A DNA stretch of 64,000 nucleotides, taken from contig JAVHLJ010000004.1 of the NCBI GenBank assembly GCA_031082205.1, positions 8,942 through 72,941 of the forward strand, given 5' to 3'. The notes below the pieces were generated by a model. It saw nothing but the letters and a program-made list of their open reading frames with translations. It was not told where the DNA came from and did no database searches. Below are positions 782 through 44,776 of the stretch, in pieces (positions within the stretch are counted from its first letter, which is position 1; every line of letters begins with the position of its first letter). The stretch is from Elusimicrobiales bacterium. GTDB lineage: Bacteria > Elusimicrobiota > Elusimicrobia > Elusimicrobiales > UBA9959. The position numbers and the translations under genes were made by a program.

Positions 782-1680
782 TGCCCGATATCCCCGTCTG
801 GCACAAGTGCGACAACCGCTGCGTGATGTGCACCAACGGGCCCGAGTTCGCGCGCCAGGAGGCGTCGCAGTACGGCCTGCGCTGCCAGGTGGGCAAGCTG
901 GAGCGCTACCTCAGCGGGCGCTACGGCAAGGTCTATCTCAAGAATCCCGACAAGCCTTTCTTCGTCAGCCTGACCGGCGGCGAGCCCACCATGCATCCAG
1001 AATTCATCAAGCTGCTGGCCTATTTCAGGCGCCGGCTTCCGGGCACCAGGCTGACGCTGCTGACCAACGGCCGCAGGCTGGGAGATAAAGCCTTTGCCCG
1101 CAGGGTGATGGCCGTGGCGGCTCCGCCCTTCTCCCTGGGAGTGCCGGTGCACGGGCCGGACGCGCGGACGCACGACGCCGTCGCGGGCGTGCGCGGCGCT
1201 TTCCGCCAGACCATGGCGGGCCTGCGCAACTTCATGGGGCTGCGCGCCGGCCAGGAACTGGAGATACGCGTCGTCCTGCACCGTCTCAACATAAAGAAGC
1301 TCGGCCCGCTGCTCGGGTTGCTGCTGAGGGAATTCCCGGACACCGCCGGCTACCGCGTCGTCCTTATCCATTACGAGATAGAGGGGATGTCTTCGGCGAA
1401 CAATAAAAAACTTTCGCTGCGCCTGTCGGATTCTGCCGAGGCCATAGCCCGGCTGCGCCCGCTGCTGGCCCGCTTCGCCGAACTGAGGCTCTATCATTTC
1501 CCGAGGTGCGTCCTGCCCGCGGACCTGCGCGGCCTCTGCTGGGTGACGCTGCCCGAAGAGGACCGGCTCTACCCGCCGGGGGCCTGCGGGGGCTGCGCGC
1601 TGAGGCGCGGGTGCGCCGGCCTCATGAAGGATTACGCCGCCGTTTACGGGACCGGCGAGCTGCGGAAGGTGCGCCGGTGA
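781..1680 (+). CDS. Radical SAM protein, HxsC-like
   Basis: Start moved to ATG 781 (TGATG overlap). CDNRCVMC, LTGGEPT, FPRC and C-terminal CGGCALRRGCAG. Confidence 0.85.
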   Translation: MPDIPVWHKCDNRCVMCTNGPEFARQEASQYGLRCQVGKLERYLSGRYGKVYLKNPDKPFFVSLTGGEPTMHPEFIKLLAYFRRRLPGTRLTLLTNGRRLGDKAFARRVMAVAAPPFSLGVPVHGPDARTHDAVAGVRGAFRQTMAGLRNFMGLRAGQELEIRVVLHRLNIKKLGPLLGLLLREFPDTAGYRVVLIHYEIEGMSSANNKKLSLRLSDSAEAIARLRPLLARFAELRLYHFPRCVLPADLRGLCWVTLPEEDRLYPPGACGGCALRRGCAGLMKDYAAVYGTGELRKVRR

Positions 1681-2834
1681 AATACCTGGCCCTGCTCACC
1701 TTCGCCGCTTTCCTCCTCTGGGGGCTGGGCGTGGTGCGCGAGGACGCCGAGCGGCGCAAGATCCCCAACGCCAGGATAGCCGCGGGTCTGAAGCTGCTGT
1801 TCTTCGCGCTGGCGCTTCAGGCGCTCAATACCGCGCTCGGGATGTCCGGCCGCGCCGACAGTTTCCTCAACCCGGAGTTCTACCGGCTGCTGGCCGGCCA
1901 CCTGGCCTGGACCGCGGCCGCCGGGATGGTGCTCTGGTACTCCGAGCTCTGGCCGGCCGGCGACGCCAAGTTCTTCATGGTCGCCTCGGCTTTCCTGCCG
2001 CTCATCCACCCGTTCGTCGGCGGCATGCCCGGATACCTCTTCCTGGTCTTCCTCATAAACACCTTCATAGCCGCCTCGCTTTACGTGCTGGGGTCCTATG
2101 TCGCCGAAGGGTTCCGGTCCGCGGCCCCCTCCGAGTTCTTCGCCAAGCTGCGCGGCGACGCGCGGCAGCGCCTGGCCGCCATAGCCGGCGAGAACGGCCG
2201 CGCGGCCGTGGCCCCGTACCTGCTCAATCTCGGTTTCATCTTCCTGCTGCAGCAGATACTCATGAAGGAGCTCAGCGGCGCGCTGTTCAGGGTCTTCAGC
2301 CACACGGGCGTGCTGTTCTTCTTCATGTTCTTCCTCTGGGACAAGATAGCGCCGTATTTCCGCAGCCGGGCATGGATGAGGGTCTCGGCGGTGTCTTACG
2401 CCCTCTATTTCGGCCTGGGCCTGCTTTTCTTCAGCGAGAGGCTTTTCGAGGTGGTCCTGGGCGCCGGGTCCAATGTCGCCAGGTTCAGCGCGCTGATCTT
2501 CGTCGGGCGTTTCATGCTGGAATACCTGATGGAGAAGAAGGACCTGGTCTACCTGCCGGCCGCCGAGGTGAAAGAGGGAGTGATCCTTTCCGCGGCCGAG
2601 CTGCGCGTCGCCCGCAACAACCCCGTTTTCGAAGGGGCCTTCGAGGACTGTTTCAAGGACGGTCTTTCGGAGGAGCAGGCCCGGCTCCTGCGCGAGTGGA
2701 TGGGCCGCCTGGCGGAGAAAGTGCCCGACCCCAAGATAGAGACCGTCAAGGGCAGACCTTTCGCCCTCTGGATATACGCGGGCGCGCTGCTGACGCTTTT
2801 CCTGGACAGGAACCTGGGACATTACATCAGATGA
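1677..2834 (+). CDS. A24-family prepilin/preflagellin (FlaK/PibD-like) aspartyl peptidase, polytopic membrane protein
   Basis: GTG start overlaps the upstream TGA. REDAERRKIPN and WPAGDAKF carry the two catalytic-type Asp. C-terminal VKEGVIL...GLSEEQ...PFALWIYAG resembles the FlaK C-terminal domain. Confidence 0.75.
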   Translation: MKYLALLTFAAFLLWGLGVVREDAERRKIPNARIAAGLKLLFFALALQALNTALGMSGRADSFLNPEFYRLLAGHLAWTAAAGMVLWYSELWPAGDAKFFMVASAFLPLIHPFVGGMPGYLFLVFLINTFIAASLYVLGSYVAEGFRSAAPSEFFAKLRGDARQRLAAIAGENGRAAVAPYLLNLGFIFLLQQILMKELSGALFRVFSHTGVLFFFMFFLWDKIAPYFRSRAWMRVSAVSYALYFGLGLLFFSERLFEVVLGAGSNVARFSALIFVGRFMLEYLMEKKDLVYLPAAEVKEGVILSAAELRVARNNPVFEGAFEDCFKDGLSEEQARLLREWMGRLAEKVPDPKIETVKGRPFALWIYAGALLTLFLDRNLGHYIR

Positions 2835-3781
2835 AAAAGAAAAAAACCTCCGCGCGCCCGAAGCGGCTGAAAATAGTCCTGTTCACCGGCTACCGGTGCA
2901 ACAACAACTGCCGCTTCTGCATCGACGCCGACAAGCGGGACCTGCCCGAGAAGACCACGGCGGAGCTGCTGCGCGACCTTTACGCCGCCAGACGCAAGGG
3001 GGCGAAGATAGTGGAGATAATCGGCGGGGAGTCCACGATAAGGCCCGATTTCCCGGCGCTGGTGCGGGCCGCCAGGCGGCTGGGGATAAAGGACGTGGTC
3101 GCGGCCACCAACGGCCGCGTCTTCTCCGATCCGGCGGCCGCCCGCGCGATAGTGAAGTCCGGCATCGGCGCTCTTATCTTCTCCGTGCACGGGCCCGACG
3201 CCCGCGTTCACGACGCGCTCACCCGTTCGCCCGGCAGCTTCCGCGAGCTCTCGCGGGGGCTCGAGAACCTGCGCGCGCTGGGCTTCCGCAATATCAACGG
3301 CAACACCACGGTGGTCAAGCGGAACATGCGCCGCCTGCCGGATATCGCCCGGTTCTACGCGCGCAACGGCGTGCGCAACGTGGAGTATATCTTCGTGGAC
3401 CCCAATTACGGCGGCGCGAAGAACGATTTCCGCGCCCTGGTGCCGCGCATCTCCGACGCGGCGCCGTACATGAGGCGGGCGCTGGACATCGGCAACAAGG
3501 CCGGCTTCACGGAGTGGAAGGTCCGCTACGTCCCGCTCTGTCATTTCGCCGGCTACCTCGGCCAGATAAGCGAGATCAACGAGCGGGCCCTTTTCGAGAC
3601 CGAACACTGGGCCCCCGATTTCATCAATCCCGACGCCATCGCCTCGCGCCGCGCCGTGGGCAGGCGCAGGACGGAGCGCTGCCGCGGCTGCGCGGCCTGG
3701 GACGCCTGCGAAGGCATCTGGACCGAATACTTCTCGCGATACGGCGACTCCGAACTCCGCCCAATGAAGAGGTACCCGTGA
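2831..3781 (+). CDS. Radical SAM protein, HxsC-like
   Basis: ATGA overlap start. CNNNCRFC, IIGGEST, VPLC, CRGCAAWDACEG. Confidence 0.85.
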   Translation: MKKKKTSARPKRLKIVLFTGYRCNNNCRFCIDADKRDLPEKTTAELLRDLYAARRKGAKIVEIIGGESTIRPDFPALVRAARRLGIKDVVAATNGRVFSDPAAARAIVKSGIGALIFSVHGPDARVHDALTRSPGSFRELSRGLENLRALGFRNINGNTTVVKRNMRRLPDIARFYARNGVRNVEYIFVDPNYGGAKNDFRALVPRISDAAPYMRRALDIGNKAGFTEWKVRYVPLCHFAGYLGQISEINERALFETEHWAPDFINPDAIASRRAVGRRRTERCRGCAAWDACEGIWTEYFSRYGDSELRPMKRYP

Positions 3782-4818
3782 GGACGCCCTCGCATCTGAC
3801 CGTTTACCTGTCGCGCGCCTGCGACATGGCCTGCGCGTACTGCTTCGTGCCCGGCGGCCGCGGCTCTGTGAAGCCCGCCGCGCTGAACGGTAAGATAGAT
3901 TCTTTCGTGCGGGCCGGCGGCGATAAGATCACTTTTCTCGGCGGCGAGCCGCTCCTGCGCTGGGGAGTGCTGCGGGCCGCGGTCGCGCGGCTGGCCAGGC
4001 TGTATCCCGGCGTCGGCGCGACCGTCTTCACCAACGGCGCGGCGCTTTCGCGCGGTCGCGCGGAGGAACTGCTGCGACTGGGAGCCAGGATAGTGCTCAG
4101 CCTCGACGGGGGCAGGGCCGACAACGACAGGTTCCGCAGGCTGAAGGCCGGGGGGTCGGCCTACGCGGCCGCGCTGCGGGACCTGCCGCGCGGGCTCAGG
4201 GCCCGCATGACCGTTTCCGCGGTGGTGCGGCCGGAGAACGCCGGGCGCCTGGCCGCCAATGTAATGTCCCTCTACTCGGCCGGTTTCCGCTCGATAGCCT
4301 GGGCGCCGGACATCAAGGCCTCCTGGGGCCCCGCCGAAGCCCGCGTTCTTTCGGCCGAACTCCTGCGTGTCGGGCGCGACTACGCCGCCCTGGACCGCGC
4401 CGGCCGGCCCGTCTACGAGATAGCCAATATCTACGAGCTCCTGGGTTCCATGCGCGGGGAGGACACCGCCGGCTGCGCCTCGATGACGCTGTCTCCGGAG
4501 GGGGCCGTCCTGCCCTGCGACAAGCTGCTGGCGGCGCCCGGTGCCTCGCGCCGCCGTTTCTCCGGCGCCGCGGGGCGCGCGAAGTTCTTCGCCGAGGCCG
4601 CCGCGGCGGGGGCCTCTCCGTCCGAACCGCTCTGTCCCGCCGGCTATTATTCGCTGCTGCGCCACGCCGGCGGGCTGGCCCAGTCCGACCTGCGCGCGGC
4701 CATGGACCTCCGCCTCTCATTCTCCAGGGCCTACGGCGCGGCTATGCGCCGACTGGTGAAGGCCCTCTCCCGCTTGCCGGCCTTCCGCCGCCGTCAGGGA
4801 CTGGAGGGGCCGCTATGA
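3778..4818 (+). CDS. Radical SAM protein
   Basis: GTGA overlap start. CDMACAYC, FLGGEPL, SLDG, and a GCASMTLSPEGAVLPC region. Confidence 0.8.
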   Translation: MRTPSHLTVYLSRACDMACAYCFVPGGRGSVKPAALNGKIDSFVRAGGDKITFLGGEPLLRWGVLRAAVARLARLYPGVGATVFTNGAALSRGRAEELLRLGARIVLSLDGGRADNDRFRRLKAGGSAYAAALRDLPRGLRARMTVSAVVRPENAGRLAANVMSLYSAGFRSIAWAPDIKASWGPAEARVLSAELLRVGRDYAALDRAGRPVYEIANIYELLGSMRGEDTAGCASMTLSPEGAVLPCDKLLAAPGASRRRFSGAAGRAKFFAEAAAAGASPSEPLCPAGYYSLLRHAGGLAQSDLRAAMDLRLSFSRAYGAAMRRLVKALSRLPAFRRRQGLEGPL

Positions 4819-6017
4819 AAAAGGGAGCCGGGGTGAAGGGGAAGTGCTACGAGCTGATATTAAATTACAACTGCAGCGCGCGCTGCCTGTTCTGTTCGCA
4901 GGGCAGCTTCGATAAATCTCTCAACGCCCCGACGCCGCGGCTGCTGGCCGATATCCGCGCCGCCTACAAGGGAGGCTACCGCCGTCTCGGCCTGACCGGC
5001 GGCGAGCCGCTCATCCGCCCCGACATGGAGAAGATAGTCGCCGCGGGCAGGCGGGCGGGTTTCGGGTTCATCCGCGTCCAGACCAACGGCATCCGGCTGG
5101 CCGACGAGGCTTTCTGCCGCCGGCTGGCCAGGGCGGGCCTGACGCTCGTTAAATTCTCTTTCACCAGCGACAGGGCCGCCGAGCACGACCTGCTCGTGGG
5201 GGTTAAAGGCGCTTTCGCGAAGGCCTCCGCCGGGGTGGAGAACCTGCGCGGGCTGGGCCTGCGCGTCGCCAATAATATCCTGGTCAACCGGCTCAATTAC
5301 CGCCGGCTGGACTCCGTCATCGACTACTGGCTGCGCAAAGGGATAAGCAGTTTCGTGGTCATCTATCCCGTCTATATCGGCAGCATGCGGGCCAATCACT
5401 CCAGGCTGGGGGTGAGCCTGCCCGACTGCGCGCCTTATTTCAAAAAAGCCGCCGAGCTGATGGAGCGGCGCGGGCTGGGCGGCGAGATCCTTTTCCTCAA
5501 CGTGCCGCCCTGCTTCCTCAAGGGCCGCGAGTCGCTGGCGATAGGGCTCGATAAGTTCAACACTACGGTCACGGACCCCGAAGGCGGGAGCAGCGACCTC
5601 GACGCCAACGCCGAGGAGGCCAAGGTCCACGGCCCGCCGTGCCGGCGCTGCGCGCTGGCCGCGCGCTGCCGCGGCGCCGACCGCAATTACGCGGAGCTCT
5701 ACGGCTGGCGCGGCTTCAGGCCTTTCAGGTCGCTCCCCCGGCCCCGCAGGGAAAAGGGCGGCCCCTCGGAGAGGACTTTCTTCTCCGACAATGAACGCTG
5801 CATGGTGAAAATACTCGAAGGGGGAGGATGGAAGACCACCGCCGCCGTGCTGGCCTTCTCCAAAAAGATGGCCATCTGCCGCGACTGCTCCGACGGCAAC
5901 GCCGTGCTCAACGCCGGCCTGTCGCTGGAGAAGAAGGGCCTTGTGGAGAAGAAACTGGAGCGCGGCGTATTCCTCTGGCGGACCAGGCCCGGCGCGGGCT
6001 CGGAGGAACGCGCATGA
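4815..6017 (+). CDS. Radical SAM protein (HxsC-like) with an extra C-terminal wHTH-like/CxxC domain
   Basis: CSARCLFC, LTGGEPL, VPPC, CRRCALAARCRG, followed by a tail of about 80 aa containing CRDC. Confidence 0.8.
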   Translation: MKKGAGVKGKCYELILNYNCSARCLFCSQGSFDKSLNAPTPRLLADIRAAYKGGYRRLGLTGGEPLIRPDMEKIVAAGRRAGFGFIRVQTNGIRLADEAFCRRLARAGLTLVKFSFTSDRAAEHDLLVGVKGAFAKASAGVENLRGLGLRVANNILVNRLNYRRLDSVIDYWLRKGISSFVVIYPVYIGSMRANHSRLGVSLPDCAPYFKKAAELMERRGLGGEILFLNVPPCFLKGRESLAIGLDKFNTTVTDPEGGSSDLDANAEEAKVHGPPCRRCALAARCRGADRNYAELYGWRGFRPFRSLPRPRREKGGPSERTFFSDNERCMVKILEGGGWKTTAAVLAFSKKMAICRDCSDGNAVLNAGLSLEKKGLVEKKLERGVFLWRTRPGAGSEERA

Positions 6018-6856
6018 GCCCTCTCGTGCACCTTCTGACCGCCTGCGACCAGCGCTGCGTGTTCTGTTCCTACCCGGCCGAGACCTCGGCCCCGGAAGGG
6101 GAGGGTCTCGCCTCGTGGGCGGCGGCGCTCAAAGAGCCGGGCCTGGTCCAGATATCGGGCGGCGAGCCGCTGCTGGCCGACAGGGGCGCGCTGCTTAAAT
6201 TCGTCCTCTACTGCGCCGGCCGTAAGCGGCGGGTGGAGCTGCAGACCAACGGCGTTCTTCTCGCGGGGCTGCCGGAGGCTTATTTCAGGCGGCTGGTCCG
6301 GGCGGTCGGTCTGTCCGGCGGCTATTTCAACGTCAATTTTCCGTCTGACACGGCCGCGGCCGATCTTAAGATAACCCGGGCCCGCGGGGCTTTCGCCGCA
6401 AGATCGCGCGGCGTTCGCCGGCTGATAAAAGCCGGGGCGGCGGTGCGGCTGACCCACGTGATAAATTCGCTCAATTACCGGCGCCTGCCGGCCTTCGTCG
6501 AATTCGCGGCGGGCCGGCTCGAGGGCGTATCCTGGATACAGTTCAGTTTCATAAAGGCTTCGGGCCGGTCCGGCGGCGGCCGGCATGTGCCGCGCTACGG
6601 GGCCGTTTCGCCTTACCTCGTAAAAGCGCTGGGGCTTTGCCGGGAGCGGGGGCTGGTCTGCGAGACCGACCACATACCGCCGTGTTTCCTCGGCGGGTTC
6701 GCGCTTTCAAGCGTGGACGCCAAAAAACTATCATCTGGAGAGCGGGGCCCGCAGCTGGCCGAGAAGGCCTATGTCGCCGCCTGCCGGGGCTGCCGCATGA
6801 AAAATATCTGCCCCGGTCCCCGAAAGGACTATATAAAGGTCCACAAGACGCTATGA
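6014..6856 (+). CDS. Radical SAM protein, HxsC-like
   Basis: ATGA overlap start. CDQRCVFC, ISGGEPL, IPPC, CRGCRMKNICPG. Confidence 0.8.
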   Translation: MSPLVHLLTACDQRCVFCSYPAETSAPEGEGLASWAAALKEPGLVQISGGEPLLADRGALLKFVLYCAGRKRRVELQTNGVLLAGLPEAYFRRLVRAVGLSGGYFNVNFPSDTAAADLKITRARGAFAARSRGVRRLIKAGAAVRLTHVINSLNYRRLPAFVEFAAGRLEGVSWIQFSFIKASGRSGGGRHVPRYGAVSPYLVKALGLCRERGLVCETDHIPPCFLGGFALSSVDAKKLSSGERGPQLAEKAYVAACRGCRMKNICPGPRKDYIKVHKTL

Positions 6857-8097
6857 ACAAGTCCCTCGCCGCGCTCAACAAGGAATTCCCCGTCCTGAAG
6901 GCCCGCTTCTCCGGGCGCAGGCTGGTGTATCTCGACAGCGCCTGCACCGTCCTCAAGATGCGCGGCGCGGCCGACGCGCAGCGGGAGAACCTGCTGCGGC
7001 TGGGCGGCTGCGGCGGGCGCCGCTCCTTCTATTCGCTGTCCGCCGGCATGGAGGAGGAGTTCGAGTCCGCTCGGCGCGCCGTCGCGGACTTCATGGGCGC
7101 CGCTTCGCCCGACGAGGTCATCTTCGCCGGCGGCGTCACCGACGCGGCCAACCTGCTGGCCAACTCTTTTCCCTTCACGAAAGAACGCGACGAGGTGGTC
7201 CTGTCGCCGCTGGAGCATAACGCCGTTTTCCTTCCTTTCGAGCGGCTGGCCGCCGCCGGGCGGGTGAAACTGAAGGTCCTCCCGCTCAAAGGGCTCGCCC
7301 CCGACCTGGACGCCCTGCCCCGGCTGCTGGGCCGCCGCACAGCGCTGGTCTGCCTCAACCACGCCTCCAATATCTTCGGCGGCAGGCAGGAGATCCGCCG
7401 CGCGGCGGCTGTTACGCGCGCGGCCGGCGCTTATCTCTTTTCCGACGACGCGCAGTTCGCCCCCACCCACGGCTCGGGCGCCGCGGCCGAGGGGGCCGAC
7501 GCCTGCGCCTTTTCCGGCCACAAACTGGGCGCGCCCTACTGCACCGGCGCGCTTTACGTCCGCCGGGAGCTGATGGCGAAGCTGCGCCCCTGGCGCGTCG
7601 GCGGCGGCACCGTGGAGGGAGTGGAACGCGACGGAGGCTACAAGGCTAAATATATCGGCGGCAACAGGGGTTTCGAGGCCGGCGTTCAGAATTACGCCGG
7701 CGCGGCCGGCCTGGCCGCGGCGATACGGCGGCTGGAACTTGCCGGCTTCGGCAATATCCGGGCGCATGTCTCCGGGCTGGTCATGGACGCTCATGACAGG
7801 CTGTCGGCCGTAAAAGGCGTCCGCGTTCTGGGCGACCGGGCCGCCCTGGCGGAGGGCTCGCTCATATCGATAGTCCCGGAGAAACGCGGCTTCTCGGCTC
7901 AGGACTTCGCTCTCTTCCTGGACTCGAGCGTCAAAGGGCTTTCGATAGCCGTGCGCTCCGGCCGCCACTGCGCCGACCTGGCCTGCCTGGCCTCGGGCGT
8001 GAAGGAAACCCTGCGGCTGTCGTATTTCACCTACAATACGCCGGCCGACACCGAGACCTTCGCGCGGGCGCTGGAACGCTACCTGCGGATGCTCTAA
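6853..8097 (+). CDS. SufS-like PLP-dependent cysteine desulfurase (aminotransferase class V)
   Basis: ATGA overlap start. YLDSAC, EHNA, FSGHK (PLP Lys), FEAG, RSGRHCA (type II catalytic Cys). Confidence 0.85.
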   Translation: MNKSLAALNKEFPVLKARFSGRRLVYLDSACTVLKMRGAADAQRENLLRLGGCGGRRSFYSLSAGMEEEFESARRAVADFMGAASPDEVIFAGGVTDAANLLANSFPFTKERDEVVLSPLEHNAVFLPFERLAAAGRVKLKVLPLKGLAPDLDALPRLLGRRTALVCLNHASNIFGGRQEIRRAAAVTRAAGAYLFSDDAQFAPTHGSGAAAEGADACAFSGHKLGAPYCTGALYVRRELMAKLRPWRVGGGTVEGVERDGGYKAKYIGGNRGFEAGVQNYAGAAGLAAAIRRLELAGFGNIRAHVSGLVMDAHDRLSAVKGVRVLGDRAALAEGSLISIVPEKRGFSAQDFALFLDSSVKGLSIAVRSGRHCADLACLASGVKETLRLSYFTYNTPADTETFARALERYLRML

Positions 8098-8145: not shown

Positions 8146-9336
8146 ATGGACAAGAAAGAACTGCTGCACAAGACCGCTTTGAAATACAGGAACGACATGG
8201 TGAAGTTCGCCTCGGACCTGGTCAAGATCCCCAGCTTCTCCTGCAAGGAAGGCCCGCTGGTGGAGCGCATCAAGAAAGAGATGATAAAGGTCGGCTTCGA
8301 CAAGGTGAAGATCGACGCGATGGGCAATATCATCGGCTTCCTCGGCAAGGGGAAGAAGAAGATCATGATGGACGCCCATATCGACACCGTCGGCATAGGC
8401 GACCCCAAGGCCTGGAAGATAAACCCGTTCGCCGGCCTGGTCAAGAACGGCCATATCTACGGCCGCGGCGCCACCGACCAGAAGCTCTCCATGGTCCCGA
8501 TGGTCTACGCCGCCAAGATGATAAAGGAACTCGGCCTCGAGGGCGACTATACGCTTATGGTCGTCGGCTCCGTCATGGAGGAGGACTGCGACGGCCTCCC
8601 GATACTGCATATCGTCAACAAGGAGAAGATCCGCCCGGACTTCGTGGTCATCACCGAGCCGACCGACCTCAAGGTGTACCGCGGCCACCGCGGCCGCATG
8701 GAGATGAAGGTCGTGACCAAGGGACGCAGCTGCCACGCCAGCGCGCCCGAGCGCGGCGACAACGCCGTGGTCAAGATGGCCGACATCACCAAGGAGATCA
8801 CCGCCCTCAACAAGCGGCTCAAGAACGACAAGTTCATCGGCAAGGGCACCGTCGCCGTCACCTCGATAGAGTGCAAGACGCCGTCGCTCAACGCCGTGCC
8901 CGACGAGTGCACGATATACCTGGACCGCCGCCTGACCGTGGGCGAGACGCTCAAGAGCTCGGTCGCCGAGATAAAGCGGCTGCCTTCCGTGAAGAAGGCG
9001 AAGGCCTCCGTCGAGGTGCTGCAGTACTCCGAGACCGCCTGGACCGGCCTGAAGGTCGGCCAGGAGAAATACTTCCCGACCTGGGTGCTGCCGGAGAACC
9101 ACAAGCTGGTGCAGGCCGGCGCCCGCGCCGCGGCCATAGCGCTCAAGAAGAAGCCGGTCATAGACCGCTGGGTGTTCTCCACCAACGGCGTGGCTTCGGC
9201 CGGCCGCCTGGGCATCCCTACGATAGGCTTCGGCCCGTCCAACGAGATCTACGCCCACACGGTCAACGAGAACATGCCGATAGACCACCTGGTCAAGGCG
9301 GCCGTGTTCTACGCCGCGCTGCCCGGCGAGCTCTGA
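8146..9336 (+). CDS. ygeY: YgeY-family M20 metallohydrolase
   Basis: DAHIDTV, GRGATDQK, VMEEDCDG, TEPT, GHRGR, HASAPERGDNA, FSTNG, GFGP...AH. Confidence 0.85.
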   Translation: MDKKELLHKTALKYRNDMVKFASDLVKIPSFSCKEGPLVERIKKEMIKVGFDKVKIDAMGNIIGFLGKGKKKIMMDAHIDTVGIGDPKAWKINPFAGLVKNGHIYGRGATDQKLSMVPMVYAAKMIKELGLEGDYTLMVVGSVMEEDCDGLPILHIVNKEKIRPDFVVITEPTDLKVYRGHRGRMEMKVVTKGRSCHASAPERGDNAVVKMADITKEITALNKRLKNDKFIGKGTVAVTSIECKTPSLNAVPDECTIYLDRRLTVGETLKSSVAEIKRLPSVKKAKASVEVLQYSETAWTGLKVGQEKYFPTWVLPENHKLVQAGARAAAIALKKKPVIDRWVFSTNGVASAGRLGIPTIGFGPSNEIYAHTVNENMPIDHLVKAAVFYAALPGEL

Positions 9337-9365
9337 GCGCCGGCGCGGTCCCGTACGCGGTATGA

Positions 9366-9399
9366 CCCCCCGCGCGAGGGCGCGGGGGGGACGGTTTTT
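9366..9399 (+). terminator. GC-rich hairpin between ygeY and the next rSAM gene
   Basis: CCCCCCGCGC-GAGG-GCGCGGGGGG (perfect 10-bp stem); the T5 tract is offset by 5 nt. Confidence 0.5.
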
Positions 9400-9401
9400 C
9401 C

Positions 9402-10490
9402 ATGAAGTCCAACCCGTTCGTCAAAAAGAACCTCGCGGCCGCGCTCGCGGCAGCACCGGGCGCGCCCGCCGCGGAGCTTCGCCGCCGCCTGGCCCGCGTG
9501 CGCTGGCCGGTGTACCGCAAGCCGAAGGTCTGCGAGGTCACGGTCAATTACCGCTGCAATCTCCGCTGCGTCTTCTGCTATAACCCCGCCGATTTCCACG
9601 CCTCCGACGCGCCGCCGGCGGACATGAAGGACATAGCCCGGGCTCTCTACGCCGGGCGCAGGAGCGGGGCCTGGATAGCCAGCCTCATCGGCGGCGAGCC
9701 CACGCTGCGCCCGGACCTGCCGGAGATAGCCCGACTGGCCCGGAAGATGGGCTACCCGCTGGTGAAGGTCTGCACCAACAGCGTCAATTTTTCCGACAGG
9801 ACGCTGATGCCGCGGCTGCGGGCCGCCGGCGTCAACATGCTCGACGTTTCGCTGCACGGGCCTTCGGCCGCGGTGCACGACCGGCTGGTCGGCGTGAAGG
9901 GCGCTTTCGACCGGGTGGTCGCCACCGTGCGCGCCGCCCAGGCCGCCGGCCTGGAAGTGGGCCTGGCGCAGGTCGTCAACCGCCTGAACTACCGGCGTTT
10001 TCCTGAATTCTTCCGTTTCGTCTTCGGGGAGCTGAAGATCAACTACTACAACATCATCTACGGCCATTACGCCGGCCTGATGGCCGGCAACGCGGCCCTG
10101 CTGCGGACGAGGATATCCTCCACGGTGCCCTATGTCAGGCGGGGCCTGGCCCATATCGCCTCTTCCGGGCTGCCGTCCTTCGCCCGGATGGTGGTCAATT
10201 TTCCGCCCTGCCTGATGCCGGAGTATTTCAACGTCATGGCCGACTGGGAACTGCCATCGTCCGGCGAGGCGCAGGAGGAACTGATGCTGCCCGACGGCAC
10301 CATGCGCGGGCTGCAGGAGATGAAGGCCGAAGGCTCCGCGAAAGTTAAGGGCTGCCGCGGCTGCCTGCTCTACGACAGGTGCAAGGGCGTGGAGAAGAGC
10401 TACATAAAACTTTACGGCGGTTCCGAGTTCAAAGCGATAAAGGCGCTGCCGCCCCAGGAACTGGCCGCGGCCTGGGAGAGGGGCGCCTGA
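9402..10490 (+). CDS. Radical SAM protein, HxsC-like
   Basis: CNLRCVFC, LIGGEPT, SLHGP, FPPC, CRGCLLYDRCKG. Confidence 0.85.
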   Translation: MKSNPFVKKNLAAALAAAPGAPAAELRRRLARVRWPVYRKPKVCEVTVNYRCNLRCVFCYNPADFHASDAPPADMKDIARALYAGRRSGAWIASLIGGEPTLRPDLPEIARLARKMGYPLVKVCTNSVNFSDRTLMPRLRAAGVNMLDVSLHGPSAAVHDRLVGVKGAFDRVVATVRAAQAAGLEVGLAQVVNRLNYRRFPEFFRFVFGELKINYYNIIYGHYAGLMAGNAALLRTRISSTVPYVRRGLAHIASSGLPSFARMVVNFPPCLMPEYFNVMADWELPSSGEAQEELMLPDGTMRGLQEMKAEGSAKVKGCRGCLLYDRCKGVEKSYIKLYGGSEFKAIKALPPQELAAAWERGA

Positions 10491-11527
10491 TGCCGACGCG
10501 CGAGCTGGACCTCTGCGTAACCAACGCCTGCAACCTGCGCTGCCGCTACTGCTACGCGGCGGGCCGCAATATGGGCCGGACCGCGCTGACCGCGGCCGAG
10601 ATGCGCCGCGCCGTCGATCTCTATCTCGAGGGGGCCGCCCGCACCTGCGACAAGATAAGCGTCAGCGGCGGCGAGCCGCTGCTGCTCTGGCGGCTGATGC
10701 CCGGCCTGCTGGGCCACATAAAGTCCGCCAGGCCCCGCGGCGCCGGCACCGAGCTTTTCACCAACGGCCTGCTGCTTTCCCCGGACAAGGCGCGCGCCAT
10801 GCTCAAGGCGGGCGTGAAGGTCAGGCTGAGCCTTGACGGCGAGAAGGAGAGCCACGACGCCTGCCGCCCTTCGGCCTCGGGGCGCTCGTCCTTCGGCTCC
10901 GTCATCGGCCGCGTCCTGGCGCTGCCCCCGGAGCTGCGCGCCCGGCTGGACGCGGTACCCACGGTCTCCATAGTCAGCTACCGCCGCATGACCGAGAACA
11001 TGCTCTTCCTGCTGGCGCTGGGCCTGCAGGCGGTCAAGCCTTCCTTCGTCCTCGACGAGGTCTGGCCGGCCGCCGACCTGCGCGAACTGAGGCGGGTGCT
11101 GGCCGCGCTCAAACGGACCGCCGCGAAGCATCTGCGCTCCGGGCGCCTCAACAGGGTGGCGCTAAAGGACCTCTCCGGCGGCGCCGCGGATTTCAGGATG
11201 TCCAACGAGATATCGATAGGCACCGACAGGTTCTTCTACCCCAGTTCGCTGGTCGCCGCCTCCTCGCCCGCGCTGCCGAAATCCCTCCTCGACGAATGGA
11301 GGATCGGCAGCCTGTCGGAGGGGATAGACTGGGAGAGGCTCGACGCCCTGCGCGACCGGGCCTACGCCGAGATAAAGTCCTGCGGCGCCGACCTCTACCT
11401 CGGCTGCCTGCTCTGCATGTATTACAGCTCCCGGATAAGGAAGGTACCGCTGAAGCCCCTGCTTAAAAGCGGGGAGAAGGTGGCGCGCGCCGTGCTCGAG
11501 GCCGGCCTGGGCGAGGTGTCGCCCTGA
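10490..11527 (+). CDS. Radical SAM protein
   Basis: TGATG overlap start. CNLRCRYC, VSGGEPL, LSLDG. Confidence 0.8.
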   Translation: MPTRELDLCVTNACNLRCRYCYAAGRNMGRTALTAAEMRRAVDLYLEGAARTCDKISVSGGEPLLLWRLMPGLLGHIKSARPRGAGTELFTNGLLLSPDKARAMLKAGVKVRLSLDGEKESHDACRPSASGRSSFGSVIGRVLALPPELRARLDAVPTVSIVSYRRMTENMLFLLALGLQAVKPSFVLDEVWPAADLRELRRVLAALKRTAAKHLRSGRLNRVALKDLSGGAADFRMSNEISIGTDRFFYPSSLVAASSPALPKSLLDEWRIGSLSEGIDWERLDALRDRAYAEIKSCGADLYLGCLLCMYYSSRIRKVPLKPLLKSGEKVARAVLEAGLGEVSP

Positions 11528-12978
11528 TGAAGAGGCCGTCGGTCATCCTGTTCAAAAGCCGCAGCGTCGTCTCCAAGGTGACCGGCGTGACCCCGCCGCT
11601 GGGACTGCTCTATATCGCCGCTTATCTGCGCGACCGCCTCGGGGCGGAGGTGCGCGTGGTGGACGGCACCCTGGAGCCCGAGCCCCTTAAAGCCCTGGCG
11701 GCCGCCGCCCGCTCTTCGCGCCCCGACGTCGTGGGGATAAGCGCGCTGACCCCCGAGGCCTTCCTCGCGCACAAGGCCTCGGCCGCCGTGAAAGAGATCG
11801 ACCCGTCCATCCCGGTGATACTGGGCGGTCCTCACCCGTCGGCCGATCCCGCGGCAGCGCTCTCCGACCCCAATACCGACGCCGCCGTCATAGGCGAAGG
11901 CGAGGAAACTTTCGCGGACCTGGTGCAGCTGATAATATCGGAAGGCCCTGGCTGGGCGCGGCCGGAACTCCTGCGCGCCCTGCCCGGCCTCGCATTCCGC
12001 GCCGATGGCCGCGTCGAACTCTCCGCGCCGCGCGCCCCCATCGCCGACCTGGATTCGCTCCCCTTCCCGGCCTGGGACCTCATCGACTATAAAAAATTCT
12101 GGGGCCGCGGCAGCATGACCAGCGCCGGTTTCAGGCCGTATTTCACCATGTTCACCAGCCGCGGCTGCCCGTATCATTGCGTGTACTGCCACCAGATATT
12201 CGGCAAGAGGTTCCGCGCCCGGTCGCCGGAAAGCGTGGCGGAGGAAACGGCCCGCCTGCTGGCGATGGGAGCGCGCGATATAGAGGTGCTCGACGATATA
12301 GCAAATTTCGACCAGCGGCGGTTCGACCGGATGCTGGAACTGATGCTGGAAAGGGGGCTCCGCCCGGTGCTGAGTTTTCCCAACGCCATACGCGCCGACA
12401 TCATGCGCGAGCGTTCGGTGGAGCTGCTGACGCGCGTCGGCGCCGGCGAGGTCTCCGTCGCCATAGAGACCGCCTCGCCTCGGCTGCAGCGGCTGCTGGG
12501 CAAAGACCTGGATCTCGGGAAGGCCTCGCGCACGATAGACATGCTGGCGGACCGCAGGATCTTCACGCGCGGCTTCTTCATGCTCGGGTTCCCGACCGAG
12601 ACGGAAGCGGAGATGCGCGCGACCATAAAGTTCGCGCACGCCTCGCGTCTGCACCTGGCGATGTTCTTCACCCCCAATCCTTTCCGCAACACCGGCCTCT
12701 ACGGCCTTTTCGAGAAGGCCGGCAAGCTGCCGAAGGACGCGCGAAGCATCGACTACGAGTACTACGGCGCGCCGTTCAACGCCAGCGAGATGTCCGACGC
12801 CCGGTACCGCGCGCTCTACCGCTGGGCCTATTACGGTTTCTATTTTAACCCCCTCCGTGCCCTGCGCATACTGCGCGACAGGCCCAGCCGGCTGGACATA
12901 CCGCTGCGGGCCTGGCGGCTGCTGCGGAACGTGGTATCTTTCAGGAGGCTGAGCGAGGCCGAAGGCGGAGGGGCATGA
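11527..12978 (+). CDS. B12-binding radical SAM protein (class B methyltransferase-like)
   Basis: PPLGLLYIAAYL, ILGGPHPS, IGEGEETF, TSRGCPYHCVYC, GFFMLGFPTET. Confidence 0.9.
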   Translation: MKRPSVILFKSRSVVSKVTGVTPPLGLLYIAAYLRDRLGAEVRVVDGTLEPEPLKALAAAARSSRPDVVGISALTPEAFLAHKASAAVKEIDPSIPVILGGPHPSADPAAALSDPNTDAAVIGEGEETFADLVQLIISEGPGWARPELLRALPGLAFRADGRVELSAPRAPIADLDSLPFPAWDLIDYKKFWGRGSMTSAGFRPYFTMFTSRGCPYHCVYCHQIFGKRFRARSPESVAEETARLLAMGARDIEVLDDIANFDQRRFDRMLELMLERGLRPVLSFPNAIRADIMRERSVELLTRVGAGEVSVAIETASPRLQRLLGKDLDLGKASRTIDMLADRRIFTRGFFMLGFPTETEAEMRATIKFAHASRLHLAMFFTPNPFRNTGLYGLFEKAGKLPKDARSIDYEYYGAPFNASEMSDARYRALYRWAYYGFYFNPLRALRILRDRPSRLDIPLRAWRLLRNVVSFRRLSEAEGGGA

Positions 12979-14525
12979 GCTCCGGTTACGACGCGATAGT
13001 TGTGGGCGCCGGCGCCGGCGGCCTCTCGGCCGCCCTCTCGCTGGCCGGGCGCGGCCTCAAGGTCCTGGTCGCCGAGAAGGGCGGCGCGCCGGGCGGCAAC
13101 TGCACCTCCGTCACGGAAGGCGGCTACACCTTCGACCTGGCCGTGCACCAGCTCTCCGGCGCCGGCGGGGACGGCGTCTGCTCCTCCATACTGAAAGAGT
13201 ACGGGGTGTCCGACCGCGTGGAACTGCGCAGGGTGGACCCTTTCCTGGTCGTGGACATGCCCGACCGCTCCTACGAGATACGCTGCGGCCGCGCCGCTTT
13301 CCGCGACGAACTGGTCAAGGCCTTCCCCGGCGACGCCGGCGACATAGAGCGGATGATAGACGGCCTCGATTCTCTGCGCAAGGACGCGCTCATCGCCCAG
13401 CGTATCGTATACGGCGGGAACCGCTGGATGGACGAGGCCCTGCGGCGCGAGATCGGCGCCGGGAAACTGCTTTCCTTCCCTTTCACCGCGTTCGCCGGGC
13501 TGGTCCTGCGGCAGCGCTCCGACGCCGACTCTGTGCTGCGGCGCTGGGTGAGAGACCCCAGGCTTCGCGCCGTCGTGCACGCCTCGTGGCCGTATCTCGG
13601 TCTGCCGCCGTCGCGCCTTTCCGGCCTGATGATGAACATCTTCGTTTCCATGCAGCACATGTGCGGCGGTTATTATCCGGCCGGCGGCTCCCAGAGGCTG
13701 GCCGACGCCATGGCGGAAGCGCTGCGCCGGAAAGGCGGGGAGCTCCTGCTGGGCGCGCCCGTGAAGCGCATCGTGACCGAAGACGGCCGCGCGCGCGGCG
13801 TGGAGCTGGAGGACGGCCGGCGCTTCGCGTCGGAAACCGTCGTTTCCAACACGGACATCCTCGCCACTTACCGCCGGCTGCTGGACCCCTCCTCCCTGCC
13901 CGCGGGGTTCCTGGCCCGGCTGGAGAGCATGCCTCCCTCCATAGCTCCGTTCCGGGTCTGCCTCGGGCTGGACCGCGACCCTTCGGACGAGGGGCTGGAA
14001 CATCACGAGTACATGATACTGCCCGGCTACGATCACGAATCCACCTTCGCCGCCATGGAGCGCGGAGAGGTTCCGGGCGTCAGCCTCTATTCGCCCTCCA
14101 GAATATCCCCGGACCTGTCGCCGCCGGGATGCGGCACGCTGATACTCACGGCGCTGATGCCCTGGCGGCCCGCGCGGGACTGGCGGGGACGCGAGGAGGA
14201 GATAGCCTCCCGGATGATTGAGATAGCGGAAAAGCGCCGGCTCCCCGGCCTTTCCTCGCGTGTGAAGGTCAAAAAGATCATGACGCCGGAGGACCTTTTC
14301 CGCATCACAGGTTCGCACATGGGCGCGATGTACGGCTGGGCCAATACCCCGGGCCAGACCCTTATGAAGAGGCTTTCCATGTATTCGCCCGTGAAGGGCC
14401 TCTATCACGCCGGCCATTGGACGCGGCCCGGGACCGGCGTCACGGGCGCCATACTCTCCGGCTGGATACTCGGGCGGAGGCTGGCCAGCCCGGCGGGCCG
14501 GCTCTTCGACAGGTTCTTCTCATGA
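12975..14525 (+). CDS. Phytoene desaturase/CrtISO-like FAD oxidoreductase (copy 1)
   Basis: DAIVVGAGAGG Rossmann motif, YYPAGGSQRLADA, TP...GAMYG, GLYHAGHWTRPGTGV. Confidence 0.85.
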   Translation: MSSGYDAIVVGAGAGGLSAALSLAGRGLKVLVAEKGGAPGGNCTSVTEGGYTFDLAVHQLSGAGGDGVCSSILKEYGVSDRVELRRVDPFLVVDMPDRSYEIRCGRAAFRDELVKAFPGDAGDIERMIDGLDSLRKDALIAQRIVYGGNRWMDEALRREIGAGKLLSFPFTAFAGLVLRQRSDADSVLRRWVRDPRLRAVVHASWPYLGLPPSRLSGLMMNIFVSMQHMCGGYYPAGGSQRLADAMAEALRRKGGELLLGAPVKRIVTEDGRARGVELEDGRRFASETVVSNTDILATYRRLLDPSSLPAGFLARLESMPPSIAPFRVCLGLDRDPSDEGLEHHEYMILPGYDHESTFAAMERGEVPGVSLYSPSRISPDLSPPGCGTLILTALMPWRPARDWRGREEEIASRMIEIAEKRRLPGLSSRVKVKKIMTPEDLFRITGSHMGAMYGWANTPGQTLMKRLSMYSPVKGLYHAGHWTRPGTGVTGAILSGWILGRRLASPAGRLFDRFFS

Positions 14526-15079
14526 GGCGGGCTCTTACCAGGGAGAATTTATTTTTCGGGCTGTCGCTGGTCCCGCTCGCCGTTTTCCTCCGCCTGGCGG
14601 GGATGGGCGGATATACCGACGAAGCCTGGGCCCTCTCGTTCAGGACCGGTGCCGCGCTCTGCGCCGGCTTCGCCGTCCTTTCACTTCGCGCCCGGGTCAA
14701 ACCCCGGGACGTATTCGGCGCCGCCGCGCTGCTGCTCTGCACCGGCGCCCTGTCTTTCCTGGCCGGCCTGGCCCCCGTCATAGACCTTTACCGCGAGTAC
14801 CAGGGGGCGGTGTTCATGTTCTGGTACGCGGCGCTGCGCCTGGCGCTCGCCCTGCGCCCAGTTCTCTTCGCCGTCTGGCTCGACGACAGGTTCTCCCGCC
14901 GCCGCGGCCTGGCCGCCCTGCTGGCGGCCGCCGCCTTCGCCTGGTCCTTCTTTTTCCACCGCGATCTGCTGGCCGGTACCGCCGCGCCGTTCATCCTCAT
15001 GAACGCCGCGCTGCACCTGGCCTGCCGCCAGCCGGCCGGCGGCGCGGGCGCCCGCGGGGACGAGGAGCCGTCGGCATGA
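14522..15079 (+). CDS. Hypothetical membrane protein (about 5 TM segments)
   Basis: ATGA overlaps at both ends; hydrophobic segments. Confidence 0.7.
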   Translation: MRRALTRENLFFGLSLVPLAVFLRLAGMGGYTDEAWALSFRTGAALCAGFAVLSLRARVKPRDVFGAAALLLCTGALSFLAGLAPVIDLYREYQGAVFMFWYAALRLALALRPVLFAVWLDDRFSRRRGLAALLAAAAFAWSFFFHRDLLAGTAAPFILMNAALHLACRQPAGGAGARGDEEPSA

Positions 15080-19668: not shown

Positions 19669-20413
19669 GAACGATCTCGCGGTGATAATGCCCGCCTTCA
19701 ACTCCGCCGCCGGCGTGGGCCGCACCCTGTCGCGGCTGTCGGCCGTAAGACCCTCCCTGCCGCCGCTGCGCGTCCTGCTGGTGGACGACGGCAGCGCCGA
19801 CGATACCGCCGCCGCGGCCGGGTCCGCCGCGCGGGACCTGGGCCTGGACCTGCGCGTGCTCAGCCACGGGTCCAACCGCGGCTACGGCGCCGCGCAGAAG
19901 ACCGGCCTCGCCGCCGCGCTGGAGGACGGCTGCCGCGCCGCCGTACTCCTCCATTCCGACGGCCAGTACGCCCCCGAAGAACTGGCCGGGGTCTGCGGCC
20001 CCGTCCTTTCCGGCCAGGCGGAGGTATGCCTCGGCTCGCGCCTTCTCTCCGGCCGCGCCCGCGAGCAGGGCATGCCCTTCGCGCGCTACTGGGCAAACCG
20101 CGGCCTGACCGCGCTGGAGAACCTGGTCTTCGGCCTGGACTTCGCCGAATACCACAGCGGCTACATGGCCTATTCCGCCGCCGCGCTGCGCGCGATAAAA
20201 TTCGGGACCCTTACCGACCGCTTCCACTTCGACGGCGAGATGCTGCTCTGCGCCGGCAAGCTCGGCCTGCGCGTGGCGCAGGTGCCGGTCTCCGCTTACT
20301 ACGGCCCCGGCTCTTCCAGCCTGTCGCCGGCGCCCTATCTCGCCGAGGTGGCGGGCGTCATGCTGCGCTACCTGCGCCGCGGCTACTATTTCCAGCGCCC
20401 GGTCACTTCCTGA
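19667..20413 (+). CDS. GT2 glycosyltransferase (DPM1-like)
   Basis: VIMPAFN, VDDGSAD, NRGYGAA, HSDGQY, GSR, FHFDGE. Confidence 0.9.
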   Translation: MNDLAVIMPAFNSAAGVGRTLSRLSAVRPSLPPLRVLLVDDGSADDTAAAAGSAARDLGLDLRVLSHGSNRGYGAAQKTGLAAALEDGCRAAVLLHSDGQYAPEELAGVCGPVLSGQAEVCLGSRLLSGRAREQGMPFARYWANRGLTALENLVFGLDFAEYHSGYMAYSAAALRAIKFGTLTDRFHFDGEMLLCAGKLGLRVAQVPVSAYYGPGSSSLSPAPYLAEVAGVMLRYLRRGYYFQRPVTS

Positions 20414-44775: not shown

Positions 44776-44776
44776 A

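Follow-up and report, generated by a model that had tools for sequence, protein, structure and literature searches.

A membrane protein gene embedded in a radical SAM operon

We analyzed a 64,000-nt stretch of DNA from an Elusimicrobiales bacterium (GenBank assembly GCA_031082205.1, contig JAVHLJ010000004.1, positions 8,942 to 72,941 of the forward strand; here called the window, with positions counted from its first nucleotide), and in particular a gene that we name A24L, which encodes a membrane protein. The gene occupies 1677-2834 on the + strand, from a GTG start codon at 1677 to a stop codon at 2832-2834. Alternative starts are present upstream at 1506 and 1611; since all homologs begin at the position of GTG 1677, with 'MKY/FL...', the product was taken to be 385 aa long. 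A24L is flanked by genes for radical S-adenosylmethionine (SAM) enzymes, HxsC-like upstream and HxsC4-like downstream, and overlaps both. At the upstream junction, the sequence 'CGGTGAAA' contains a GTGA overlap (1677-1680) in which the A24L GTG (1677-1679) is interleaved with the TGA of the HxsC-like gene (1678-1680), and at the downstream junction 'AGATGAAA' contains an ATGA overlap (2831-2834) with the ATG of the next radical SAM gene (2831-2833) and the TGA of A24L (2832-2834). A previous reading of this DNA made from the sequence alone (the sequence-only reading) had proposed an open reading frame (ORF) at 1677-2834 with both aspartate motifs of peptidase family A24, translationally coupled within a radical SAM operon, and on both counts it was borne out, the aspartates being D23 and D96.

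The operon comprises eight genes in the first 8.1 kb of the + strand, with each junction overlapping by 1 or 4 nt. The first gene, cut by the window start, is represented by the C-terminal 259 codons of an HxsB-type radical SAM/SPASM maturase (2-781; TIGR03978 E = 3.6e-70 over profile positions 240-466, with the SPASM domain). The full-length ortholog in the relative L002 (GCA_002348085.1), whose A24L is 90% identical to the window protein, scores 434 bits against the TIGR03978 cutoff of 370, with the L002 paralogs at 451 and 434 bits. The HxsC-like radical SAM gene preceding A24L (781-1680, 299 aa) matches PF04055 (E = 4.8e-11) and TIGR03977 (E = 8.5e-45, 152.9 bits, under the 267.9 cutoff), and the HxsC4-like gene that follows A24L (2831-3781, 316 aa) matches PF04055 (E = 4.7e-22) and the HxsC4 model NF038332 (E = 8.3e-41, 140 bits, far under the cutoff of 500). 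Next come a radical SAM gene closest to PapB-type peptide maturases (3778-4818, 346 aa; PF04055 E = 1.6e-12; NF047865 E = 4.9e-22, under cutoff) and two further HxsC-like radical SAM genes (4815-6017, 400 aa, PF04055 E = 1.3e-17 and TIGR03977 E = 2.7e-22; 6014-6856, 280 aa, PF04055 E = 3.7e-9 and TIGR03977 E = 4.9e-20, both under the TIGR03977 cutoff). The overlapping run ends with a gene for a SufS-like class V aminotransferase/cysteine desulfurase (6853-8097; PF00266 E = 2.8e-70; TIGR01979 E = 9.5e-77, under cutoff). Overall, the HxsC-like genes of the window reach 72-153 bits on TIGR03977, under its cutoff, and HxsC4-like genes 140-168 bits on NF038332.

A24L is related to peptidase family A24

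Two motifs connect A24L with the GxGD-type aspartic peptidases of family A24. Motif 1, D23-A-E-R-R-K-I-P-N31 (1743-1769, + strand), lies at the cytoplasmic end of helix 1 in the context V-R-E-D23-A-E-R-R-K-I-P-N31 and supplies the putative first catalytic aspartate, D23, followed by [KR]-I-P-N. Motif 2, W92-P-A-G-D96-A-K-F-F100 (1950-1976, + strand), lies at the start of helix 4 and is equivalent to GxGD, with D96 as the putative second catalytic aspartate; the first Gly of this motif is replaced by Pro, Ala or Ser in the A24L family. Conservation was assessed in alignments of 34 close relatives (A1) and of 70 diverse members that are 18-41% identical to the window protein (A2). D23, W92, A94, D96 and K98 are invariant in both, as are W87, F362 and G369 across the diverse set, in which G95 (at least 90%), F100, L126, N128, F130, D328 and G329 are near-invariant. 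N31 is invariant in A1 and at least 90% conserved in alignment A4. Invariance of the Asp pair and its surroundings among members with so little overall identity is the pattern expected of a retained active site and argues for putative catalysis.

The family is sizeable. A search of 5.8 billion proteins gave 96 relatives of A24L, nearly all of 383-385 aa and 45-55% identity from metagenome-assembled genomes (MAGs) of Elusimicrobia, and a profile search of 1.84 billion cluster representatives gave 1,308 proteins of 360-550 aa at E ≤ 1e-3, 159 of them at E ≤ 1e-30. A few homologs carry the source names 'prepilin peptidase' or 'CpaA'. Peptidase_A24 (PF01478) matches 19 of the 34 close relatives at E ≤ 1 and, of the 70 diverse relatives, 33 at E ≤ 0.01 (best 1.4e-7) and 38 at E ≤ 1. 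The consensus of the family hidden Markov model matches the same profile with E = 5.2e-5 and 24.1 bits (cutoff 26.5) over positions 2-99 of 104. At the level of the family, A24 homology is thus well supported by sequence comparison, and in this sense the A24-superfamily assignment of the sequence-only reading, which rests on the invariant catalytic motifs and these family-level matches, stands.

Apart from PF01478, the only family that recurs in the Pfam scan of the 70 relatives is Arc_PepC, a domain found at the C-terminus of archaeal A24 peptidases (three at E ≤ 1; one member matches Arc_PepC_II), and no transporter family is among the matches. The family consensus matches Arc_PepC (PF06819) with E = 0.0014 and 19.3 bits (cutoff 23.4) across residues 284-318 and profile positions 9-43 of 110. 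The N-terminal Cys-rich methyltransferase domain typical of PilD (PF06750) was not found by Pfam in A24L or in the 70 relatives; A24L begins with helix 1. An NCBIfam scan of the window protein gave no significant match. As a side observation, the family profile aligns with the pore region of the MthK potassium channel at E = 0.27, which is not significant, across A24L residues ~192-297 (window 2250-2570); this is of note only in view of the ion conduction reported for FlaK.

Predicted structure and topology of A24L

AlphaFold modeled the full-length protein with a mean predicted local distance difference test (pLDDT) score of 84.7 and a predicted template modeling (pTM) score of 0.82, and a core of residues 1-154 with a pLDDT of 96.5. 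In both models D23 is at the end of helix 1 (residues 2-26, pLDDT >90) and D96 at the start of helix 4 (94-110). About ten membrane helices are predicted (2-26, 31-56, 66-88, 94-110, 121-148, 175-198, ~205-220, 235-251, 253-287 and 363-376), together with an amphipathic helix at 151-169 in the full-length model. As modeled, the A24L core would consist of helices 1-5 with Asp23 and Asp96, followed by four transmembrane helices, a cytoplasmic domain of ~70 residues and a conserved last helix, RPFAxWI. From the helix count and the distribution of basic loops, we infer that both aspartates, the 149-174 loop and the soluble domain probably face the cytoplasm.

The predicted cytoplasmic domain is an alpha/beta domain (residues ~288-357, window 2538-2747, + strand) with the motifs PGMILS and [FY]xDGL[ST]xEQ, in which D328 and G329 are invariant in A1 and nearly so in A2; it is a candidate leader-binding module. 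The last transmembrane helix carries R-P-F362-A-L-W-I-x-x-G369 (2757-2804, + strand), with F362 and G369 invariant in A2, and this motif seems to correspond to the (P)FGP motif near the C-terminus of prepilin peptidases. In the hhalign comparison with E. coli GspO no other stretch was paired (with TIAFGPWLALG), and the probability was low.

The sequence-only reading had called A24L archaeal-type and its C-terminal domain FlaK-like, and had asked for comparison with FlaK and PilD. In FlaK, the catalytic residues are D18 on helix 1 and D79 on helix 4 (PMC10117864). A Foldseek search with the A24L core model ranked FlaK (3s0x) fourth, with E = 3.8 and a probability of 0.18, which is not significant, although its TM-score (0.46/0.40) was the highest of all matches. 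In its crystal structure FlaK adopts an inactive, splayed state in which 12 Å separate the two aspartates (PMC4985597), and this would lower any superposition score. The model and profile comparisons with FlaK and GspO put FlaK first by TM-score for the core but gave no significant match. Likewise, an alpha/beta domain does precede the last helix, but it has two strands in the model, not four as for the Arc_PepC comparison, and Arc_PepC stays under its cutoff and reaches few of the members. With sub-threshold matches only, for the consensus on Arc_PepC as for the core on FlaK, the archaeal-type label looks overstated.

The position of A24L within radical SAM clusters is conserved

To examine the setting of A24L in other organisms, contigs from one genome per GTDB species were scanned, which gave 71 loci (L005-L075), all from Elusimicrobiota or unclassified MAGs apart from one Omnitrophota fragment. 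With neighbors classified by phmmer, a radical SAM gene on the same strand directly abuts A24L in 65 of the 71. The HxsC-like/A24L/HxsC4-like trio is fixed in the close family. In a distant Elusimicrobia subgroup (L053, L058, L060 and L067), A24L instead follows another radical SAM gene of the cluster and the HxsC-like and HxsC4-like genes adjoin each other, so the gene can change place within the cluster without leaving it. Where at least 9 kb of upstream sequence is available, loci have a median of 6 and up to 11 radical SAM genes on the A24L strand.

A metagenome scan used only distant family members as queries, avoiding re-finding the same clade, and gave 80 loci with GC contents of 25-75%. 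An HxsC-like radical SAM gene is directly adjacent on the same strand in 48 of about 70 testable loci, and in many others an HxsB-like gene lies within 1-2 kb of A24L. The sequence-only reading had named co-occurrence with Hxs clusters as a check, and a position that is not conserved as an observation that would speak against it; the placement in 65 of 71 genomes and in distant metagenomic relatives is in line with the former and contrary to the latter.

The family also includes a 'long form' of 440-550 aa, for which radical SAM neighbors were not found in L077-L085 and L088 (for example, L078:9983-11578, L081:9992-11380 and L082:3414-4760, from high-GC organisms); its neighbors are genes for TPR proteins, DUF4932 proteins and a di-heme cytochrome c peroxidase. 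Not all of the A24L family is thus linked to radical SAM genes. Given these TPR and DUF4932 neighbors, the long form was also dropped as a possible second setting related to ribosomally synthesized and post-translationally modified peptides (RiPPs).

The flanks of the cluster are shared as well, with the same barnase/barstar and SufS genes in relatives. A barnase-type ribonuclease and barstar lie just upstream of the cluster at L002:1-920 and L004:2957-3915, and as A24L is only about 53% identical between these two, the flank appears to be conserved too. In the two loci for which gene-by-gene domain tables were made, no type IV pilus genes were noted, and PADLOC returned only generic radical SAM/viperin cross-hits and no specific match. 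With its vertical conservation across a phylum, the cluster is more suggestive of a core envelope or peptide pathway than of a mobile defense island.

Candidate substrates in related clusters

The gene order that leads up to A24L in L002 is barnase/barstar, sec213 (described below), HxsD, HxsB, HxsD, a Cys-rich 359-aa protein, a 107-aa His-Xaa-Ser precursor, HxsB-like, radical SAM, HxsB and HxsC-like. The HxsD-like genes of relatives score 29.6 and 42.2 bits on TIGR03976, under its cutoff of 50, and carry precomputed PF27806 HxsD matches. The precursor gene (L002:4968-5291) scores 70.8 bits on the HxsA4 model NF038313, over the cutoff of 55, and the L015 copy scores 87.8 bits. HxsA4-type precursors were found in 18 genome loci (L002 and 17 others) and 13 metagenome loci, and in L065 the precursor gene is immediately upstream of A24L.

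These precursors are 78-139 aa long and have long repeat runs. In 25 distinct sequences, a Lys-rich start is followed by F-L-x-S-E-E-G/A-K-[MIV]-x-[KD]-x-D-[VI]-[VL]-K/R-x-[AGT] and then by ~13 hydrophobic residues; positions that the search pattern did not specify are conserved too, with K at +1 in 23 of the 25 and D at +6 and K/R at +9 in all 25. Beyond the helix there is an AxA-like site or a lipobox, then (HxS)n repeats and a short tail of GGWC, GQW or GSY. Lipoboxes were seen in L129:3363-3599 (LAS|C) and in L131:2237-2473 and L136:447-710 (FAA|C), and in such lineages the mature product may be a lipid-anchored Cys-(HxS)n-GGWC peptide. The overall layout, a charged leader, a small residue (Gly/Ala) and a hydrophobic helix, is what A24 enzymes act on. 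The suggestion of the sequence-only reading that the substrate may be pilin-like or membrane-anchored holds in this respect, with a charged leader and a hydrophobic helix in the HxsA4-type precursors of relatives, but not as regards likeness to pilins, since neither Flp_Fap nor N_methyl was matched. For the same reason, the label 'class III signal' was dropped for the precursors and only the argument from layout was kept.

A second candidate is sec213, a family of secreted proteins (213 aa in L002) encoded by the first gene of most clusters in one to three tandem copies (L002:1041-1682; L016:5319-6792; L042:4058-6637). Its N-terminus is conserved, with [RK]-x-A-L, a 12-residue hydrophobic stretch (FFLCW) and HPGxLGSE-TLTLTTYYPAPYGGY-xxLLTT; written out at length, it reads ...[RK]-x-A-L-x-L-L-x-x-F-F-L-C-W-H-P-G-x-L-G-S-E-T-L-T-L-T-T-Y-Y-P-A-P-Y-G-G-Y. 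The middle is variable, and the C-terminus is G-x-M-x-C-C-[RK]-[IF]. This protein may be a second substrate, of the radical SAM enzymes or of A24L. We also noted that the Cys-rich protein of ~360 aa (L002:3869-4948 and homologs), which sits between the second HxsD gene and the precursor or next radical SAM gene, has an N-terminal signal or anchor (MKKG/W and a hydrophobic stretch), a Lys/Glu-rich C-terminus and no family match.

A possible role of A24L in leader removal

The interpretation that we favor, and to which we give roughly even chances, is that A24L is a dedicated GxGD-type processing peptidase of an expanded HxsA4-type radical SAM cluster, which would cut the cytoplasmic leader from these membrane-inserted precursors, and is not a housekeeping prepilin peptidase. 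This keeps the core of the sequence-only reading, a leader peptidase for the radical SAM pathway; pilin likeness, archaeal type and the bearing of the local prepilins were overstated there. The process would start from a precursor of the kind seen in relatives, in which a Lys-rich N-terminus leads into the invariant F-L-x-S-E-E-G/A-K-x-x-x-x-D-x-x-K leader, and a ~13-residue hydrophobic segment is followed by an AxA site or lipobox, repeats and a Gly/Trp/Cys tail. Judging from RiPP logic and the E. coli HXS system (PMC13128918), HxsD and the HxsB/HxsC-type enzymes would bind the leader in the cytoplasm and modify the repeat or tail before export. If A24 enzymes are a guide, the hydrophobic segment would then insert with its N-terminus inside and A24L would cut at the cytoplasmic face, N-terminal to the segment. 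The cut might fall behind the conserved Gly/Ala of SEEG or at K-x-[G/A/T], immediately ahead of the helix. Either would remove the recognition leader, and the remainder would be exported and either stay anchored or be trimmed by signal peptidase I or II. In this model the proteolytic activity, the identity of the substrate, the site and timing of cleavage and the role of the cytoplasmic domain are all what we infer.

Several observations weigh against this interpretation. For the window protein itself, the sole Pfam line is Peptidase_A24, spanning nearly the whole profile at E = 8.2 and 7.4 bits (cutoff 26.5), compared with 104.9 bits for E. coli GspO. A phmmer search and a profile hmmsearch of PDB sequences returned no FlaK or A24 chain, only chance helix matches (SemiSWEET, a designed transmembrane protein and MthK), and hhalign of the 70-member profile against E. 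coli GspO, a single template sequence and so a thin comparison, aligned only the last-helix motif, at a probability of 1.9%. Foldseek with the full-length model gave no match at E < 0.35, and FlaK was outside the top 50. By Pfam threshold and fold statistics, this one sequence would not formally be placed in A24. On the substrate side, no HxsA-like gene is within the window, which starts inside HxsB, and the precursors were seen only in relatives; ten precursor N-termini had no match to Flp_Fap (PF04964) or N_methyl (PF07963) at E ≤ 10; the AxA site or lipobox follows a short (~13-residue) hydrophobic stretch, so signal peptidase I or II alone could process the precursor; and the conserved Gly precedes the helix by ~9 residues, a longer spacing than in pilins. 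Finally, of the 52 loci whose upstream sequence reaches 9 kb or more, only 14 showed an HxsA4 gene. The sec213 gene was found in 25 of the same loci, in 6 together with HxsA4 and in 19 with no HxsA4 within 10 kb; 19 loci had neither, mostly where the cluster passes beyond the 10-kb flank.

These counts bear directly on the substrate. A24L might be an active peptidase of the cluster that cuts another cluster-encoded protein, mainly sec213 and secondly the Cys-rich ~360-aa protein, a possibility that we consider unlikely. Beyond its presence in many loci that have no HxsA4 gene, sec213 has a highly conserved N-terminus in which a basic residue and then Ala precede the helix, and its C-terminal G-x-M-x-C-C-[RK]-[IF] recalls the GGWC tail of HxsA4. 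Archaeal class III signals have a basic residue followed by Ala ahead of the helix. The hydrophobic stretch of sec213 is short, however, and a plausible site for signal peptidase I, LGS|E, comes after it. In many distant loci, moreover, A24L occurs with HxsB, HxsD and HxsA-like genes but no sec213 match, and none of the NCBIfam models names sec213.

It is quite doubtful, in our view, that A24L is mainly something other than a protease, such as a scaffold, exporter or channel in the membrane, where it would hold the radical SAM enzymes and the precursor or move the modified product. The ten predicted helices, five of them beyond the A24 core, and the conserved cytoplasmic domain would suit such a role; FlaK/ArlK reportedly conducts ions in a way that does not depend on its catalytic activity (PMC10117864), and export of canonical HxsA is non-canonical and needs other Hxs proteins (PMC13128918). 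Such a role would not lead one to expect both aspartates and their surrounding residues to be invariant in members as divergent as 18-41% identity, and no transporter family was detected.

Local type IV prepilins and the prepilin peptidase question

The sequence-only reading had listed three prepilin-like genes at 39-43 kb of the window. Two of these carry the N-methylation motif, 41637-42146 at 26.9 bits and 39142-41643 at 20.7 bits, the latter just under the cutoff of 21.2, whereas 42143-43582 has no match to this motif and is PilX-like by eye only. The prepilin sites in 39142-41643 and 41637-42146 are G|FTLLELL and G|YTLMELM, of the type G|F/Y-T-L-x-E-L. The product of 39142-41643 is unusually large for a pilin-like protein, with 833 aa, a prepilin-type N-terminus (GGGFTLLELLL) and three CarboxypepD_reg domains. 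Canonical type IV prepilins normally go with a bifunctional PilD. Because such sites go with that enzyme and A24L has no methyltransferase domain, the local prepilins are unlikely substrates of A24L.

A24L is highly improbable as the housekeeping prepilin peptidase of the cell, which would serve type IV pilins, for instance those at 39-43 kb, and be placed in the radical SAM operon by chance. This explanation could draw on the two N-methylation-motif genes with their processing sites, on the source names 'prepilin peptidase' and 'CpaA' of some homologs, and on the window itself: a six-frame motif scan and a family-profile scan found no second A24-like ORF in the 64 kb, as the sequence-only reading had stated. 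The window is only 64 kb of the genome, however, and lack of a second A24 gene in it says little. The radical SAM location is kept in 65 of 71 species-level genomes and in distant lineages, and A24L has no N-terminal methyltransferase domain but five extra helices and a family-specific cytoplasmic domain. An ORF with the canonical G-[GAS]-G-D-x-K motif was found in none of the genome loci examined, and PilD has been confirmed in papers only for Endomicrobium. That A24L is the sole PilD of the genome is unlikely.

Given that A24 enzymes cut uncleaved substrates at their cytoplasmic boundary, not remnants, and that a dedicated, strictly conserved gene seems excessive for the task, we find it very hard to credit that A24L acts like a signal-peptide peptidase, clearing the leader-plus-signal remnant after signal peptidase I or II has freed the HxS peptide, even with the AxA site or lipobox right behind the hydrophobic segment (for example, LAS|C in L129 and FAA|C in L131). 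Signal peptide peptidases do belong to the same GxGD class (PMC10117864).

Other genes in the window

Downstream of the A24L operon, the region 8146-21860 begins with a gene for an M20 peptidase (8146-9336), followed by two radical SAM-like ORFs at about 9402-11527. A B12-binding radical SAM enzyme (11527-12978) and an amine-oxidase-type flavoprotein (12975-14525) are encoded next. The ORFs at 15076-16626, 16626-18074 and 20403-21860 (- strand) resemble this B12-binding radical SAM/flavoprotein pair. The biosynthetic region may reach as far as about 22 kb.

Immediately downstream of the pilin-like genes there is a second RiPP-like module (43557-46137) that encodes a P-loop protein without a Pfam match (43557-44366), a PqqD-family protein (44363-44641, E = 2.6e-16), an S24/S26-like peptidase (44777-45121) and a radical SAM/SPASM enzyme (45097-46137). 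Further downstream are a giant ORF of 4,548 aa with a signal-like N-terminus (46664-60310) and an ORF of 1,069 aa (60307-63516).

Implications and comparison with known systems

If A24L is a leader peptidase of the radical SAM cluster, it would be the first of the A24-type enzymes to be linked with RiPP-like maturation and would add a new kind of leader peptidase to such pathways. A24 peptidases are known almost only for pilins, pseudopilins and archaellins, and a radical SAM-linked subfamily would widen their known biology. A pairing of the F-L-x-S-E-E-G-K leader with a membrane peptidase of its own would have parallels in exosortase or rhombosortase systems. A24L would also suggest what kind of enzyme might carry out the unexplained N-terminal cleavage of HxsA in HXS defense and is a testable candidate for the processing step of non-canonical His-Xaa-Ser systems. 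More tentatively, we suggest that the WPAGDAK family as a whole (at least 1,308 clusters at 50% identity, from many phyla) could be an unrecognized GxGD class that serves as the dedicated leader peptidase of radical SAM-modified His-Xaa-Ser precursors. The signature D-x5-[KR]-I-x-[NH] ... W-[PAS]-A-G-D-x-K ... Y-x-D-G-L-[TS]-x-x-Q ... F-A-x-W-I-F-x-G could annotate more than 1,000 'hypothetical' membrane proteins, and would also flag unrecognized Hxs-type clusters in uncultured phyla.

Among characterized peptidases, FlaK (ArlK)/PibD (MEROPS A24B; PDB 3S0X) resembles A24L in having no methyltransferase domain, in the placement of the first Asp on helix 1 and of the second where helix 4 begins, within a GxGD/GxHyD-type motif (PMC10117864), and in having a soluble domain beside the membrane core, for which the A24L consensus matches Arc_PepC weakly. 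FlaK/PibD has 6 helices and is encoded at an archaellum or pilus locus, whereas A24L has a bacterial host, ~10 helices and a radical SAM cluster as its setting. The A24L motif W-P-A-G-D-A-K, with Pro at the first Gly, is unlike that of FlaK/PibD, and no match to FlaK is statistically significant.

The TadV/CpaA peptidases of Flp prepilins share with A24L a peptidase-only core, and one distant A24L homolog was named CpaA by JGI. Flp leaders end in Gly, and the precursor leader F-L-x-S-E-E-G resembles them by eye. A24L is twice the size of TadV, however, the precursors have no Flp_Fap match and tad genes were not seen at the A24L locus. PilD/GspO has in common with A24L the PF01478 core (at the family level) and the conserved last-helix motif, and differs in its N-terminal Cys-rich domain and its linkage to type IV pili or type II secretion, neither of which was seen for A24L.

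Among known systems, the cluster can also be compared with the four-gene HXS system of E. coli and Klebsiella, HxsA-HxsB-HxsC-HxsD, which blocks phage DNA entry (Nat Commun 2026, PMC13128918). Both have HxsB- and HxsC-type radical SAM enzymes, small HxsD-like proteins and a His-Xaa-Ser repeat substrate with an N-terminal export signal, and the canonical HXS substrate is N-terminally cleaved during maturation (PMC13128918). As canonical HxsA matures, it acquires a modification of +8 Da and an unknown protease makes a 'non-canonical' N-terminal cut, and its export is described as non-canonical and dependent on other Hxs proteins (PMC13128918). HXS systems are found in Pseudomonadota in 99.7% of cases, more than 99.8% have just four genes, and these canonical systems contain no A24-like peptidase gene (PMC13128918). 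The A24L clusters differ in their up to 11 radical SAM genes, their cysteine desulfurase, the A24-like gene itself and the long-repeat precursors. No NCBIfam or Pfam model covers the A24-like partner, and in the searchable literature there is no paper linking Hxs to A24 or prepilin peptidases. Variants of the other components are already modeled in NCBIfam, as HxsA4 (NF038313), HxsA3, HxsA2, HxsC4 (NF038332) and HxsD_rel, and since the precursors of relatives pass the HxsA4 cutoff, the precursor type that we propose as the substrate of A24L has already been recognized by curators.

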